From assembly GCF_003334255.1 (NCBI RefSeq), contig NZ_QOWU01000029.1: a DNA stretch of 59,744 nucleotides. One strand, 5' to 3'. Source of the DNA: Escherichia coli. Its GTDB lineage: Bacteria > Pseudomonadota > Gammaproteobacteria > Enterobacterales > Enterobacteriaceae. The position numbers were made by a program, and so were the translations under genes. Below are positions 42,937 to 59,646 of this stretch, piece after piece. Within the stretch, counting starts at the first letter, position 1; every line of letters starts with the position of its first letter. Under the pieces are notes generated by a model, which searched no databases, had not been told where the DNA came from, and was given only the letters and a program-made list of their open reading frames with translations.

Positions 42937-43101
42937 TCTACGCTATTTGCCTGCGAAACGTGCGCGGCGCAACTAACGCTTAGTTCACATAAAATAACAC
43001 ACAATGTTAATTTATGTGAATCAGATCACCATATCGTTATCTTCCAGCGCTTACATTCACAATATCAAACAAAATATCACTTAAATTAACAAGGAGAGCA
43101 G

Positions 43102-44010
43102 ATGAAAACGGGATCTGAGTTTCATGTCGGTATCGTTGGCTTAGGGTCAATGGGAATGGGAGCAGCACTGTCATGTGTCCGCGCAGGTCTTTCTACCTGG
43201 GGCGCAGACCTGAACAGCAATGCCTGCGCTACGTTGAAAGAGGCAGGTGCTTGCGGGGTTTCTGATAACGCCGCGACGTTTGCCGAAAAACTGGACGCAC
43301 TGCTGGTGCTGGTGGTCAATGCGGCCCAGGTTAAACAGGTGCTGTTTGGTGAAACAGGCGTTGCACAACATCTGAAACCCGGTACGGCAGTAATGGTTTC
43401 TTCCACTATCGCTAGTGCTGATGCGCAAGAAATTGCTACCGCTCTGGCTGGATTCGATCTGGAAATGCTGGATGCGCCAGTTTCTGGTGGTGCAGTAAAA
43501 GCCGCTAACGGTGAAATGACTATCATGGCCTCCGGTAGCGATATTGCCTTTGAACGACTGGCACCCGTGCTGGAAGCCGTTGCCGGAAAAGTTTATCGCA
43601 TAGGTGCAGAACCGGGACTAGGTTCGACCGTAAAAATTATTCACCAGTTGTTAGCGGGCGTACATATTGCTGCCGGAGCCGAAGCGATGGCACTTGCAGC
43701 CCGTGCGGGGATCCCGCTGGATGTGATGTATGACGTCGTGACCAATGCCGCCGGAAATTCCTGGATGTTCGAAAACCGGATGCGTCATGTGGTGGATGGC
43801 GATTACACCCCGCATTCAGCCGTCGATATTTTTGTTAAGGATCTTGGTCTGGTTGCCGATACAGCCAAAGCCCTGCACTTCCCGCTGCCATTGGCCTCAA
43901 CAGCATTGAATATGTTCACCAGCGCCAGTAACGCGGGTTACGGGAAAGAAGACGATAGCGCAGTTATCAAGATTTTCTCTGGCATCACTCTACCGGGAGC
44001 GAAATCATGA
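43102..44010 (+). CDS. ygbJ: NAD-dependent 3-hydroxyisobutyrate dehydrogenase-family oxidoreductase (L-threonate dehydrogenase-like), 302 aa
   Basis: ORF track; Rossmann motif VGIVGLGSMGMGAA. Confidence 0.9.
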   Translation: MKTGSEFHVGIVGLGSMGMGAALSCVRAGLSTWGADLNSNACATLKEAGACGVSDNAATFAEKLDALLVLVVNAAQVKQVLFGETGVAQHLKPGTAVMVSSTIASADAQEIATALAGFDLEMLDAPVSGGAVKAANGEMTIMASGSDIAFERLAPVLEAVAGKVYRIGAEPGLGSTVKIIHQLLAGVHIAAGAEAMALAARAGIPLDVMYDVVTNAAGNSWMFENRMRHVVDGDYTPHSAVDIFVKDLGLVADTAKALHFPLPLASTALNMFTSASNAGYGKEDDSAVIKIFSGITLPGAKS

Positions 44011-45269
44011 TCAAGATTGGCGTTATCGCCGATGATTTTACCGGCGCGACGGATATCGCCAGTTTTCTGGTGGAAAACGGTCTACCAACGGTACAAATTA
44101 ACGGTGTTCCAACAGGTAAAATGCCGGAAGCAATCGACGCACTGGTGATCAGCCTGAAAACGCGCTCCTGTCCAGTGGTTGAAGCCACACAGCAATCGCT
44201 GGCGGCTCTGAGCTGGTTGCAACAGCAAGGTTGCAAACAGATCTATTTCAAATACTGCTCTACTTTCGACAGTACGGCGAAAGGTAATATTGGCCCGGTT
44301 ACCGATGCCTTAATGGATGCTCTCGACACGCCGTTTACGGTCTTCTCTCCGGCCCTGCCGGTCAACGGACGTACGGTTTATCAGGGGTATTTGTTCGTAA
44401 TGAATCAACTGCTGGCCGAATCCGGGATGCGCCATCACCCGGTAAATCCCATGACCGACAGCTATCTTCCCCGTCTGGTTGAAGCGCAATCCACAGGGCG
44501 CTGCGGCGTCGTTTCGGCACATGTTTTCGAACAAGGTGTGGATGCCGTTCGTCAAGAGCTGGCTCGCTTACAGCAAGAGGGCTACCGCTACGCGGTGCTT
44601 GATGCGCTGACCGAACACCATCTGGAAATTCAGGGAGAAGCCTTGCGCGATGCCCCACTGGTAACGGGCGGTTCTGGTCTGGCGATTGGCCTGGCCCGGC
44701 AGTGGGCGCAAGAAAACGGTAACCAGGCTCGCAAAGCAGGGCGTCCGCTCGCTGGGCGCGGCGTAGTGCTCTCCGGTTCATGCTCTCAAATGACCAACCG
44801 CCAGGTAGCACATTACCGTCAAATTGCACCAGCCCGTGAAGTTGATGTGGCACGCTGCCTCTCAATTGAAACTCTGGCCGCTTATGCACACGAACTGGCA
44901 GAGTGGGTTCTGGGCCAGGAAAGTGTACTTGCTCCACTGGTTTTTGCCACCGCCAGCACTGACGCATTGGCAGCAATTCAACAGCAATACGGTGCACAAA
45001 AAGCCAGTCAGGCAGTAGAAACACTGTTTTCTCAACTAGCGGCGCGGTTAGCAGCGGAAGGCGTGACACGCTTTATTGTCGCAGGCGGTGAGACCTCCGG
45101 CGTAGTCACACAGAGCCTGGGAATAAAAGGGTTTCATATTGGCCCAACCATTTCCCCCGGCGTGCCGTGGGTAAACGCACTGGATAAGCCTGTCTCACTC
45201 GCCCTTAAATCTGGCAACTTCGGTGATGACGCCTTTTTTTCACGAGCCCAAAGAGAGTTTTTATCATGA
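44007..45269 (+). CDS. ygbK: DUF1537-family four-carbon acid-sugar kinase (3-oxo-tetronate kinase-like), 420 aa
   Basis: ORF track; N-terminus MIKIGVIADDFTGATD typical of the family; start overlaps the ygbJ stop. Confidence 0.88.
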   Translation: MIKIGVIADDFTGATDIASFLVENGLPTVQINGVPTGKMPEAIDALVISLKTRSCPVVEATQQSLAALSWLQQQGCKQIYFKYCSTFDSTAKGNIGPVTDALMDALDTPFTVFSPALPVNGRTVYQGYLFVMNQLLAESGMRHHPVNPMTDSYLPRLVEAQSTGRCGVVSAHVFEQGVDAVRQELARLQQEGYRYAVLDALTEHHLEIQGEALRDAPLVTGGSGLAIGLARQWAQENGNQARKAGRPLAGRGVVLSGSCSQMTNRQVAHYRQIAPAREVDVARCLSIETLAAYAHELAEWVLGQESVLAPLVFATASTDALAAIQQQYGAQKASQAVETLFSQLAARLAAEGVTRFIVAGGETSGVVTQSLGIKGFHIGPTISPGVPWVNALDKPVSLALKSGNFGDDAFFSRAQREFLS

Positions 45270-45904
45270 GCGATTTCGCAAAAGTAGAGCAGTCTTTGCG
45301 AGAGGAGATGACGCGGATTGCCAGTTCATTCTTTCAGCGCGGCTATGCAACCGGTTCGGCTGGCAATCTGTCGCTGCTTTTACCTGACGGGAATTTACTG
45401 GCGACACCGACAGGTTCATGCCTGGGCAATCTCGATCCGCAGCGGCTTTCCAAAGTCGCCGCGGATGGCGAATGGTTAAGTGGTGACAAACCCTCGAAAG
45501 AGGTGCTCTTTCATCTGGCGCTGTATCGCAACAATCCGCGTTGTAAAGCGGTGGTGCATTTGCACAGCACATGGTCGACGGCGCTTTCCTGCCTGCAAGG
45601 GCTGGACAGCAGCAACGTTATTCGTCCGTTCACACCATACGTGGTGATGCGGATGGGAAATGTCCCGCTGGTGCCTTATTACCGACCGGGCGATAAACGC
45701 ATCGCACAGGATCTGGCGGAACTGGCAGCAGACAATCAGGCTTTTTTACTGGCAAATCATGGCCCAGTGGTTTGCGGTGAAAGCCTGCAAGAAGCCGCCA
45801 ACAATATGGAAGAGCTGGAGGAAACGGCAAAGCTGATTTTTATTCTCGGTGACCGCCCGATCCGTTATCTGACCGCAGGTGAAATTGCGGAATTAAGGAG
45901 TTAA
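45266..45904 (+). CDS. ygbL: Class II aldolase/adducin-family protein (3-oxo-tetronate 4-phosphate decarboxylase-like), 212 aa
   Basis: ORF track; class II aldolase fold features; start overlaps the ygbK stop. Confidence 0.88.
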
Positions 45905-45908
45905 TGCA

Positions 45909-46685
45909 ATGCCTCGTTTTGCAGCTAATTTATCCATGATGTTCACCGAAGTGCCTTTTATTGAACGCTTCGCCGCAGCGCGAAAAGCCGGGTTCGATGC
46001 TGTGGAATTTCTGTTTCCCTATGACTACTCCACCCTGCAAATCCAAAAGCAACTGGAGCAAAACCATCTGACACTGGCGCTGTTCAATACCGCTCCCGGA
46101 GATATTAATGCGGGGGAATGGGGATTATCCGCCCTTCCCGGACGTGAGCACGAAGCACACGCAGACATCGACCTGGCACTGGAATATGCATTGGCGCTCA
46201 ATTGTGAACAAGTCCATGTGATGGCAGGCGTCGTGCCCGCTGGCGAAGATGCTGAACGGTACCGGGCAGTATTTATCGATAATCTCCGCTACGCTGCCGA
46301 CCGCTTTGCGCCACACGGCAAGCGAATATTAGTTGAAGCACTCAGCCCCGGCGTTAAGCCTCATTATCTCTTCTCCAGCCAGTATCAGGCACTGGCTATT
46401 GTTGAAGAAGTTGCGCGAGATAACGTGTTTATTCAACTAGATACTTTTCATGCGCAAAAAGTAGATGGCAACCTGACGCATTTAATCCGCGACTACGCCG
46501 GGAAATATGCGCACGTACAAATTGCCGGACTACCTGATCGACATGAACCGGACGATGGAGAAATCAACTATCCGTGGCTGTTCCGCCTGTTCGATGAGGT
46601 GGGATATCAGGGCTGGATCGGTTGTGAATATAAACCTCGTGGCCTCACCGAAGAAGGGCTTGGCTGGTTTGACGCCTGGCGCTAA
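45909..46685 (+). CDS. ygbM: Xylose-isomerase-like TIM-barrel protein (hydroxypyruvate isomerase family; 2-oxo-tetronate isomerase-like), 258 aa
   Basis: ORF track; family recognised from sequence. Confidence 0.88.
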
Positions 46686-46773
46686 TTCGTTAAATCCCTA
46701 ATTACAACGTACCCATACATCCCCCCATCTACGGATGGGGTAGGTTAACTATAACTTTCAGACAGGGTTTCCC

Positions 46774-48138
46774 ATGTCCACAATTACATTGTTATGCATT
46801 GCGTTAACTGGCGTAATCATGCTGTTGCTGCTGGTCATCAAGGCAAAGGTACAACCATTCGTTGCTCTGCTCCTCGTCAGCCTGTTAGTCGCACTTGCGG
46901 CGGGTATACCGGCGGGCGAAGTGGGTAAAGTGATGATCGCCGGGATGGGCGGTGTGCTTGGTTCCGTCACTATTATTATTGGTCTGGGCGCTATGCTGGG
47001 GCGTATGATCGAACACTCTGGTGGTGCAGAGTCACTGGCTAATTATTTCAGTCGCAAGTTAGGTGACAAACGAACTATCGCTGCGCTGACTCTGGCAGCG
47101 TTCTTCCTCGGTATTCCCGTCTTCTTTGATGTCGGCTTTATTATTCTTGCGCCAATCATTTACGGTTTTGCCAAGGTTGCCAAAATATCGCCACTCAAAT
47201 TTGGCCTGCCTGTCGCTGGGCTCATGCTCACTGTTCACGTGGCGGTACCGCCGCATCCAGGCCCTGTCGCCGCAGCGGGGTTACTCCACGCAGACATCGG
47301 CTGGCTAACCATCATCGGTATTGCGATTTCTATTCCCGTAGGGGTTGTTGGCTACTTTGCAGCGAAAATAATCAATAAGCGCCAATATGCGATGTCAGTA
47401 GAAGTACTGGAACAGATGCAACTGGCTCCGGCCAGTGAGGAAGGCGCGACAAAATTAAGCGATAAAATAAATCCACCGGGCGTCGCGCTGGTCACCTCGC
47501 TAATTGTTATTCCTATCGCGATTATCATGGCGGGTACGGTTTCCGCAACACTGATGCCGCCTTCGCATCCCCTGCTTGGTACGCTACAGCTGATCGGCTC
47601 ACCAATGGTAGCTCTAATGATTGCGCTGGTGCTGGCATTCTGGTTATTGGCTTTACGTCGCGGCTGGAGCTTACAACACACCAGCGACATTATGGGCTCA
47701 GCGCTTCCTACTGCGGCGGTAGTGATTTTGGTTACTGGTGCTGGAGGGGTATTTGGCAAAGTGCTGGTGGAATCGGGCGTCGGCAAAGCCCTTGCCAACA
47801 TGCTACAAATGATTGACCTGCCTCTGTTACCAGCCGCATTTATTATTTCACTGGCGCTGCGTGCATCGCAGGGGTCAGCAACCGTAGCAATACTGACAAC
47901 CGGCGGGTTACTCTCAGAAGCGGTGATGGGATTGAATCCGATTCAGTGCGTATTGGTGACGCTGGCAGCCTGCTTTGGTGGGCTTGGTGCGTCACATATT
48001 AATGACTCAGGGTTCTGGATTGTGACCAAATATCTGGGGTTATCGGTAGCAGACGGTCTGAAAACCTGGACAGTGTTAACGACCATTCTCGGTTTTACCG
48101 GATTCTTAATTACCTGGTGCGTATGGGCGGTAATTTGA
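46774..48138 (+). CDS. ygbN: GntP-family acid-sugar permease, 454 aa
   Basis: ORF track; polytopic GntP-type membrane protein. Confidence 0.9.
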   Translation: MSTITLLCIALTGVIMLLLLVIKAKVQPFVALLLVSLLVALAAGIPAGEVGKVMIAGMGGVLGSVTIIIGLGAMLGRMIEHSGGAESLANYFSRKLGDKRTIAALTLAAFFLGIPVFFDVGFIILAPIIYGFAKVAKISPLKFGLPVAGLMLTVHVAVPPHPGPVAAAGLLHADIGWLTIIGIAISIPVGVVGYFAAKIINKRQYAMSVEVLEQMQLAPASEEGATKLSDKINPPGVALVTSLIVIPIAIIMAGTVSATLMPPSHPLLGTLQLIGSPMVALMIALVLAFWLLALRRGWSLQHTSDIMGSALPTAAVVILVTGAGGVFGKVLVESGVGKALANMLQMIDLPLLPAAFIISLALRASQGSATVAILTTGGLLSEAVMGLNPIQCVLVTLAACFGGLGASHINDSGFWIVTKYLGLSVADGLKTWTVLTTILGFTGFLITWCVWAVI

Positions 48139-48150
48139 CCTTAATAAAAA

Positions 48151-48176
48151 GGTCCGATGGGCATCGGACCTTTTAT
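48151..48176 (+). terminator. Intrinsic terminator downstream of ygbN
   Basis: Hairpin ggtccgatgggcatcggacc followed by ttttatt. Confidence 0.75.
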
Positions 48177-48186
48177 TGTGCACAGA

Positions 48187-48218
48187 AAAGGCCAGCCTCG
48201 CTTGAGACTGGCCTTTCT
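48187..48218 (-). terminator. Intrinsic terminator downstream of rpoS
   Basis: Minus strand reads the hairpin ggccagtctcaagcgaggctggcc followed by ttttct. Confidence 0.75.
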
Positions 48219-48231
48219 GACAGATGCTTAC

Positions 48232-49224
48232 TTACTCGCGGAACAGCGCTTCGATATTCAGCCCCTGCGTTTGCAGGATTTCACGCAAACGGCGCAGGCC
48301 TTCAACCTGAATCTGGCGAACACGTTCACGGGTGAGGCCAATTTCACGACCTACATCTTCCAGTGTTGCCGCTTCGTACCCCAGCAAACCGAATCGACGT
48401 GCCAGCACTTCACGCTGTTTGGCGTTCAGCTCGAACAGCCATTTGACGATGCTCTGCTTCATATCGTCATCTTGCGTGGTATCTTCCGGACCGTTCTCTT
48501 TTTCATCGGCCAGGATGTCCAGCAACGCTTTTTCGGAATCACCACCCAGCGGGGTGTCTACCGAGGTAATGCGCTCGTTAAGACGAAGCATACGGCTGAC
48601 GTCATCAACTGGCTTATCCAGTTGCTCTGCGATCTCTTCCGCACTTGGTTCATGGTCCAGCTTATGGGACAACTCACGTGCGGTTCGCAGGTAAACGTTC
48701 AGCTCCTTTACGATGTGAATCGGCAAACGAATAGTACGGGTTTGGTTCATAATCGCCCGTTCAATCGTCTGGCGAATCCACCAGGTTGCGTATGTTGAGA
48801 AGCGGAAACCACGTTCCGGGTCAAACTTCTCTACCGCGCGGATCAGCCCCAGGTTGCCCTCTTCGATAAGGTCCAGCAACGCCAGACCACGATTGCCATA
48901 ACGGCGGGCAATTTTTACCACCAGACGCAAGTTACTCTCGATCATCCGGCGGCGAGAGGCGACATCTCCACGCAGTGCGCGACGCGCAAAATAAACTTCT
49001 TCTTCGGCCGTTAACAGTGGTGAATAACCAATCTCACCAAGGTAAAGCTGAGTCGCGTCCAACACACGCTGTGTGGCTCCCTGCGATAACAGTTCCTCTT
49101 CGGCCAAATCGTTATCACTGGGTTCCTCTTCTACTAAGGCCTTTTCGTCAAAAACCTCAACTCCGTTCTCATCAAATTCCGCATCTTCATTTAAATCATG
49201 AACTTTCAGCGTATTCTGACTCAT
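48232..49224 (-). CDS. rpoS: RNA polymerase sigma factor RpoS (sigma-38), about 330 aa; the track ORF is extended to 49260
   Basis: ORF track; sigma70-family regions 2-4; canonical start [21 protein letters not shown]. Confidence 0.97.
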
Positions 49225-59313: not shown

Positions 59314-59646
59314 GAGTTCTACCGCAGGGGCGGGGGAACTCCAAGTGATATCCATCATCGCATCCAGTGCGCCCGGTTTATCCCCGCTGACGCGGGGAAC
59401 ACACATGAATGTCGGTTCAGACCGTGTTTTTACCCGGTTTATCCCCGCTGGCGCGGGGAACACGGAATGATATTTCAATAAATAATTATAACAATCGGTT
59501 TATCCCCGCTGGCGCGGGGAACACCCCTCACACCGATTCGCCAAACGGTGGAGAAGCGGTTTATCCCCGCTGGCGCGGGGAACACAGCCGGGCGAAATTT
59601 TGATTCATCGTGATGACCGGTTTATCCCCGCTGGCGCGGGGAACAC
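59314..59646 (-). CRISPR. Type I-E-style CRISPR array end: five 29-bp repeats with four 32-bp spacers, plus a degenerate terminal repeat and a 31-bp spacer-like segment on the iap side
   Basis: Repeats cggtttatccccgctggcgcggggaacac at 59374, 59435, 59496, 59557 and 59618; the first carries G to A (gctgacgcg); a degenerate unit lies at about 59314-59342; + strand shows the reverse complement of the I-E repeat, so transcription is inferred on the minus strand. Confidence 0.93.

Follow-up and report, generated by a model that had tools for sequence, protein, structure and literature searches.

A conserved stem-loop without a U-tract in the ygbM–ygbN spacer of Escherichia coli and its possible part in unequal enzyme and transporter expression

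The window, which is the whole 59,744-nucleotide stretch of DNA analysed here (contig NZ_QOWU01000029.1 of assembly GCF_003334255.1), comes from the Escherichia coli chromosome and has the gene order ygbI (encoding the repressor) on the minus strand, then ltnD, otnK, otnC, ygbM (otnI) and ygbN on the plus strand, and then rpoS. YgbM matches the NCBIfam family NF043033 (2-oxo-tetronate isomerase) with 396 bits, where the cut-off is 325, and YgbN matches NF007332 at 826 bits (GntP transporter PRK09821). The ygbM stop codon, TAA, occupies positions 46683–46685 and the ATG of ygbN lies at 46774, leaving a spacer of 88 nt (46686–46773), and the features that we place in and around it are collected in Table 1. 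It should be noted that YgbM carries the RefSeq/PGAP label 'HPr family phosphocarrier protein', via NCBIfam NF007441, although it belongs to the TIM-barrel isomerases (Pfam PF01261) and scores above the NF043033 cut-off as well; the HPr label is apparently a misnomer, repeated by now in thousands of records. We also note that otnK in the window (44007–45269) has 420 codons and overlaps otnC, whereas in K-12-like genomes the gene is annotated as shorter (1167 nt) and is followed by a 92-nt gap before ygbL.

Table 1. Position and basis of the features in and around the ygbM–ygbN spacer (coordinates are those of the window).
Feature	Position	Strand	Basis and remarks
ygbM / otnI CDS (2-oxo-tetronate isomerase), last enzyme gene before the spacer	45909..46685	+	ORF list, RefSeq annotation of matching E. 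coli genomes, NCBIfam
Spacer 5' half, C-rich and G-poor (12 C, 2 G), poorly conserved	46686..46722	+	Composition, alignment
Hairpin 5' arm, CCCCAUC	46723..46729	+	Sequence, pair probabilities; invariant except C46726 to U in variant L093
Hairpin loop, UACG, closed by C46729–G46734 (C(UNCG)G tetraloop)	46730..46733	+	Sequence
Hairpin 3' arm, GAUGGGG	46734..46740	+	Sequence; invariant in all Escherichia and Citrobacter-lineage sequences
A/U-rich linker, UAGGUUAACUAUAACUUUCA, nearly invariant	46741..46760	+	Alignment, spacers of other genera
Predicted small hairpin, GACAGGG-UUU-CCC(A)UGUC, enclosing a weak Shine-Dalgarno sequence (AGGG) and the ygbN AUG	46761..46778	+	MFE and partition-function folds
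ygbN CDS (GntP-family permease)	46774..48138	+	ORF list, annotation, NCBIfam NF007332

A first-pass annotation of this DNA had described a perfect 7-bp stem with a 4-nt loop and no U-tract between the isomerase and permease genes. This was borne out at 46723–46740, where the sequence is as described, TAGGTTAACTATAAC comes next and a scan for terminators was negative. Judging from the positions of ygbN and the rpoS terminator, the spacer would correspond to about 2,865,013–2,865,100 in MG1655 and the hairpin to about 2,865,050–2,865,067. The 18-mer is predicted to fold at −12.7 kcal/mol (RNAfold), with five G–C pairs in the 7-bp stem, and each of the seven pairs has a probability of 0.94–0.98 when folded in a 281-nt mRNA context, as is likewise the case for the E. 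albertii and Citrobacter versions of the hairpin. Loop swaps shift the predicted energy by less than 2 kcal/mol, as far as nearest-neighbour predictions alone can tell. An alternative and longer fold which recruits upstream ACCC/CAUCC (−15.2 kcal/mol) is not the conserved structure, because it is lost in E. albertii and Citrobacter.

Taken alone, the hairpin is not beyond chance, and hairpins of this sort are the rule in E. coli spacers. We counted 54 perfect 7-bp stems with loops of 3–8 nt in the window compared with 28 ± 6 in Markov-1 random sequence, and the expectation for such a stem is about 0.04 per 88-nt spacer, with dozens of spacers in the window. A single hairpin of −12.7 kcal/mol or better was found in 13 of 16 co-directional spacers of 30–400 nt in the window. 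The fold of the whole spacer was no better than that of shuffled sequences (z = −0.74), and a test of the best single hairpin against dinucleotide shuffles gave p ~0.07. Judged from the alignments described below, it is conservation in relatives that raises this hairpin above chance. The window contains 18 perfect 7-bp hairpins that are G+C-rich, and five of them lie in repeats of a CRISPR array, of type I-E as in E. coli, that begins in this region (59381–59640) with TCCCCGC-NNNN-GCGGGGA recurring every 61 bp.

The locus is present in 4592 complete E. coli genomes, each with a single copy of the hairpin, and 4570 of these share an identical sequence over the 40 nt surrounding it. E. albertii differs from E. 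coli at 0.25–0.42 of the four-fold sites in the flanking genes; its spacer carries four substitutions, all within the first 37 nt, and none from 46721 to the ATG. A further lineage, consisting of the Citrobacter freundii complex and conjugative plasmids of Citrobacter and Enterobacter, was found by a search of metagenome DNA with a sequence pattern from which E. coli codons were excluded, together with protein-cluster look-ups, and its own YgbM also served as a query (a protein search with E. coli YgbN as the query returned only E. coli variants and no additional spacers). Here 0.52 of four-fold sites differ from E. coli and the upstream 37 nt of the spacer have accumulated many substitutions and indels, but the stem is kept in all but the L093 variant and the hairpin plus the 33 nt up to the ATG contain only 3–4 changes. 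The 33 nt after the stem show two changes, a T-to-C directly 3' of the stem and a C-to-T near the ATG. In the hairpin itself the loop changes from UACG to UCCG, which affects the free N position and retains the UNCG consensus, while the change of C46726 to U in L093 leaves a G.U pair in the plus-strand RNA; for the minus strand the same change makes the predicted fold less stable (−10.9 before, −4.3 kcal/mol after). A hairpin formed in plus-strand RNA would accommodate both changes, and by a rough estimate the chance of two random changes both being structure-neutral is ~0.17. Across the Escherichia/Citrobacter group, six of the stem pairs are invariant, one shows a wobble (G.U) and there is no compensatory change. 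The alignments thus point to strong purifying selection on the block 46721–46773, in which pairing as the selected property is not proven, and because six of the seven pairs never vary and none changes in a compensatory manner, conservation within Escherichia and Citrobacter could reflect something other than pairing.

In E. coli OkiPb01711 (NZ_AP042673.1, 3568854–3607620), a Mu-like prophage of ~38.7 kb lies at the 3' foot of the hairpin (window 46741–46743), with genes for the Mu transposase, Gam, Mor, Com and Mom and with GGTA at both junctions, and cuts ygbN off from the hairpin and the operon promoter; this insertion is present in one of the 4592 genomes. The otnK–otnC–otnI–ygbN copy carried by Citrobacter and Enterobacter conjugative plasmids is ~83% identical to that of E. 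coli. Some 80 other plasmids of ~100–110 kb from Klebsiella, Enterobacter, Citrobacter and E. coli have only a 192-bp fragment of ygbN (window 46804–46995), which is often located at the same plasmid coordinate (4761–4952).

About 60 distinct ygbM–ygbN spacers were recovered in all, and in most lineages we found a G+C-rich hairpin of −14 to −28 kcal/mol which is unrelated in sequence to that of E. coli and is usually more stable than all 40 shuffles. The distance from the hairpin to the ATG is 33 nt in E. coli and Entomohabitans (where the spacer is also 88 nt), 30 nt in Serratia and 30–31 nt in Gallibacterium, and the four sequences are unrelated. Pantoea/Erwinia-like lineages have their hairpin 4–18 nt past the ygbM stop codon and 42–90 nt from the ATG, often with a UUCG, UACG or UCCG loop, and after it comes either an immediate TTT(T) or another hairpin, which is terminator-like and has a T-run. 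Within the Pantoea-like clade 96% of alignment cells are paired, with one compensatory UA-to-CG pair in four sequences. A Salmonella lineage with the same gene order (S. enterica contigs; YgbM of 260 aa) has instead an A/T-rich spacer of 56–57 nt without a hairpin. By this comparison a stem-loop at the ygbM–ygbN junction is recurrent and probably selected, yet dispensable, and the E. coli hairpin is a minimal version without a U-tract. We note that in S. diarizonae and Scandinavium an epimerase/dehydratase-type gene follows ygbM and the GntP permease is a different one. A (T/G)ATAAC hexamer (window 46750–46755), ~20–25 nt before the ygbN ATG, also recurs across genera whose spacers cannot otherwise be aligned, and might be a promoter −10 element, a binding site or a translation enhancer.

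Published work on the regulator of this operon provides a view of transcription across the spacer. ChIP-exo located a single YgbI site, between ygbI and ygbJ, and deletion of ygbI in MG1655 derepressed ygbJ, K, L, M and N together (PMC8464067). The ygbI–ygbJ intergenic region of the window contains the inverted repeat TTCACATAAA ... TTTATGTGAA (42984–43020), which is unrelated to the hairpin motif and is likely to be a YgbI operator. Since all five genes are derepressed from a single YgbI-controlled promoter, transcription runs through the hairpin, and as transcription from the ygbJ promoter crosses it, termination there is not efficient; with ygbN up 15-fold alongside the operon in the deletion mutant, much or most of the transcription reads through. 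We used the DESeq2 table in the supplement of the same publication to derive reads per kb for each gene (Table 2). The largest step-down in RNA falls at the ygbM–ygbN spacer, where the ygbN/ygbM ratio is ~0.32 per kb in the ygbI deletion, and a smaller one (to 0.56) at the 92-nt ygbK–ygbL gap of K-12. The drops are thus located at the two untranslated gaps, ygbK–ygbL and ygbM–ygbN, and part of the ygbN drop may be the ordinary polarity seen at any untranslated gap. The gap where this other step-down occurs is the one created by the shorter otnK annotation of K-12-like genomes. In the wild type, ygbN RNA did not exceed that of ygbM, and this speaks against ygbN having an active promoter of its own in the conditions used. 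Among published sets of 3' ends, the supplement of Adams 2021 lists only the rpoS terminator near ygbN and TRS 2023 has no entry, the operon being repressed in those experiments.

Table 2. Expression of the ygbJ–ygbN operon in the ygbI deletion study (PMC8464067); the per-kb values were derived in this analysis and assume equal replicate numbers and K-12 gene lengths.
Gene	baseMean	log2 fold change	Derived reads per kb in mutant
ygbJ	841.9	5.55	~1814
ygbK	926.9	5.15	~1545
ygbL	283.8	5.09	~863
ygbM	306.4	4.62	~758
ygbN	175.6	3.95	~242

The start of ygbN looks poorly translatable in the folding model, because its weak Shine-Dalgarno (SD) sequence and AUG are predicted to lie inside a small hairpin (Table 1), and the mean unpaired probability of the SD sequence is 0.14 in the partition-function fold. 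The C46772 to U change of the Citrobacter lineage retains a G.U pair in this structure. The structure may explain weak translation of ygbN. We considered whether the upstream hairpin might act as an insulator which keeps the C-run from masking the SD sequence and rejected this, as in-silico mutants of the arms leave SD accessibility at 0.14. The 3' arm also includes AUG-GGG-UAG (46735–46743) in frame with ygbN. In the Citrobacter lineage the UAG is replaced by CAG, so that initiation at the upstream AUG would lengthen YgbN by 13 codons (gene callers use the downstream AUG), and as its stop is not conserved we rejected this mini-ORF.

Comparison with known systems places the hairpin close to several types of element. 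It resembles intrinsic (Rho-independent) terminators in being a G+C-rich hairpin past a stop codon, and T-runs are found in the same spacer of some other genera, but in E. coli it has no U-tract and the downstream gene is co-derepressed; the U run (at least about five of eight) that defines such terminators is absent directly after the stem, a terminator scan of 45800–48400 reported no site in this spacer, and we rejected this assignment. For hundreds of E. coli transcripts, among them Rho-dependent and processed ones, the 3' end is documented to be shielded from PNPase and RNase II by a stable stem-loop lacking a U-tract (Dar and Sorek 2018, PMC6061677). The spacer hairpin is like these stem-loops in being a stable G+C-rich stem-loop without a uridine tract just past a coding sequence, and the role which we propose for it below is the same barrier to PNPase and RNase II. 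It differs from them in that the 7-bp stem is at the short end of their range, the next gene begins only 33 nt further on and is co-expressed, the 3' end between ygbM and ygbN is a predicted one, and there is no C-over-G bias downstream. The last of these was assessed as C minus G in 78-nt windows starting at 46730–46850, where values of −0.04 to +0.04 were obtained against a 95th percentile of 0.154 across the whole analysed stretch; this absence of a rut-like bias 3' of the hairpin in these 78-nt windows is unlike the average Rho-dependent case, and a Rho-utilisation site downstream of the hairpin was rejected for this reason.

The REP elements between malE and malF are reportedly intercistronic stabiliser hairpins that set unequal expression within an operon. 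The ygbM–ygbN hairpin similarly separates an upstream gene of higher expression from a membrane-transporter gene of lower expression, with the RNA-seq difference in the expected direction, but it is single-copy and has no REP consensus, and consists of one short stem as opposed to a palindrome of roughly 35 nt. It was also rejected as a dispersed REP/BIME repeat, being single-copy in the 4592 E. coli genomes with only chance-level approximate matches elsewhere in the window. Extra-stable C(UNCG)G tetraloop hairpins are said to have been noted in intercistronic regions, and with a UACG loop (UCCG in relatives) and an invariant C–G closing pair the hairpin falls within the sequence definition of these; however, this class is defined by structure and not by function, and the extra stability is predicted here from the sequence class only. 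No Rfam 15 family was assigned, the best hit, SAM-Chlorobi, reaching 16.8 bits (E = 1.8) where the gathering score is 35. We also rejected a CsrA site based on the GGAUG of the 3' arm, in which the GGA is outside the loop and there is no second GGA at the SD sequence, and ygbM and ygbN were not among the matches listed in CsrA CLIP tables. A second YgbI operator was likewise rejected, given that the single ChIP-exo site is located elsewhere and the ygbI–ygbJ region contains no CCCCATC/GATGGGG.

The first-pass annotation had also proposed that the hairpin may be a processing or stability determinant which uncouples transporter from enzyme expression. We consider this idea reasonable and plausible but unproven; it is partly supported by the conservation of the hairpin, by the presence of hairpins in most lineages and by the drop in ygbN RNA, and the lack of compensatory change counts against it. 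Our own reading, which we hold tentatively and think quite possibly correct, is that the hairpin is a 3'-end-protecting stem-loop inside the operon that leaves ygbN RNA at about one third of the ygbM level. It would act as a C(UNCG)G stem-loop within a polycistronic ltnD–otnK–otnC–otnI(ygbM)–ygbN mRNA, and RNA polymerase would read through it because there is no U-tract. The message would then be cut in the A/U-rich stretch just 3' of the hairpin, or would end prematurely in the poorly translated start of ygbN, and 3'-to-5' exonucleases would trim it back and halt at the hairpin. Arrest of the exonucleases at this point means that the enzyme-coding part of the mRNA would outlive the permease part, giving ygbN RNA at ~1/3 of ygbM. 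The AAC/UUU at about 46756 in the linker fits the preference of RNase E-type enzymes and, from a reading of the sequence, is a candidate cleavage site. We infer both that the ygbN drop depends on the hairpin and that it comes about by one of these two routes, cleavage or early termination, with the exonucleases arrested afterwards. The hairpin, which is unannotated, could also be described as an intercistronic stabiliser or attenuator.

Other explanations of the same observations have to be weighed against 3'-end protection. It is unlikely, in our view, that the hairpin has no function of its own and is only a by-product of a conserved block constrained by something else, for instance the ygbN translation initiation region or an internal promoter. 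Such an origin would be in keeping with the base rates (hairpins of equal or greater stability occur in 13 of the 16 co-directional spacers in the window, and neither the fold, with z = −0.74, nor the best-hairpin test, with p ~0.07, sets this one apart), with the absence of covariation among the stem pairs in the Escherichia/Citrobacter group, with a Salmonella lineage that has no hairpin, and with the 33 nt downstream being as strongly conserved as the hairpin itself. It accords less well with two arms that are invariant while the adjoining upstream 37 nt vary freely, with changes that were both structure-neutral where the estimated chance of this is ~0.17, and with the retention by independent lineages of unrelated hairpins at the ygbM–ygbN junction. 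Joint conservation of the hairpin with its downstream leader could alternatively mean that it serves ygbN, either by stabilising, as a 5' stem-loop, a ygbN transcript that is processed or has its own start, or as a structural boundary ~33 nt before the AUG that sets the ribosome landing site, and the hairpin-to-ATG spacing of 30–33 nt in E. coli, Entomohabitans, Serratia and Gallibacterium, despite unrelated sequences, would be explained in this way. We nevertheless judge a role of this type to be distinctly unlikely, given that our scan found no sigma-70-like promoter upstream of the hairpin on the plus strand, wild-type ygbN RNA is not above ygbM and gives no sign of an independent promoter, disruption of either arm in silico leaves the predicted SD accessibility at 0.14, and the Pantoea-like hairpin adjoins the ygbM stop codon, 42–90 nt from the ATG.

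The approximately three-fold drop in RNA across the spacer, and the terminator-like versions in related lineages in which the hairpin is followed by TTT(T), could also be accounted for by a weak factor-independent attenuator or pause signal that halts some RNA polymerases despite the missing U-tract, but with UAGGUUAA coming next, a negative terminator scan and ygbN still derepressed 15-fold with the operon, we think this very unlikely. We give equally little weight to an element acting at the DNA level, with CCCCATC N4 GATGGGG (7-4-7) as the operator of a dimeric factor at an internal ygbN promoter. The repeat is a perfect inverted one with half-site centres 11 bp apart, the half-sites are invariant in sequence and do not covary, and a TATAAC hexamer is found 10 bp downstream; however, the sole YgbI ChIP-exo site is in the ygbI–ygbJ region and has a different repeat (TTCACATAAA...TTTATGTGAA), the scan detected no promoter-like site on the plus strand, the L093 variant loses symmetry yet retains RNA pairing, and the wild type shows no excess of ygbN RNA. 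Arms that are invariant in sequence instead of covarying would be explained if the hairpin, the invariant 33-nt linker and the SD/AUG hairpin together formed one conserved leader of ~56 nt (46723–46778) that is read sequence-specifically, but we regard this as highly improbable; it would be similarly far-fetched to suppose that the reader is an RNA-binding protein, a small RNA or a metabolite and that the permease is in this way tuned independently of the enzymes.

Hairpins of this sort are common in E. coli spacers, so no general picture is changed by these findings. If the 3'-end-protection reading is right, ltnD–otnK–otnC–otnI–ygbN would be another operon that sets unequal amounts of enzymes and transporter from one promoter, and this would have a modest value for engineering the L-threonate/D-erythronate (ltn/otn) pathway or tartrate-growing ygbI mutants.
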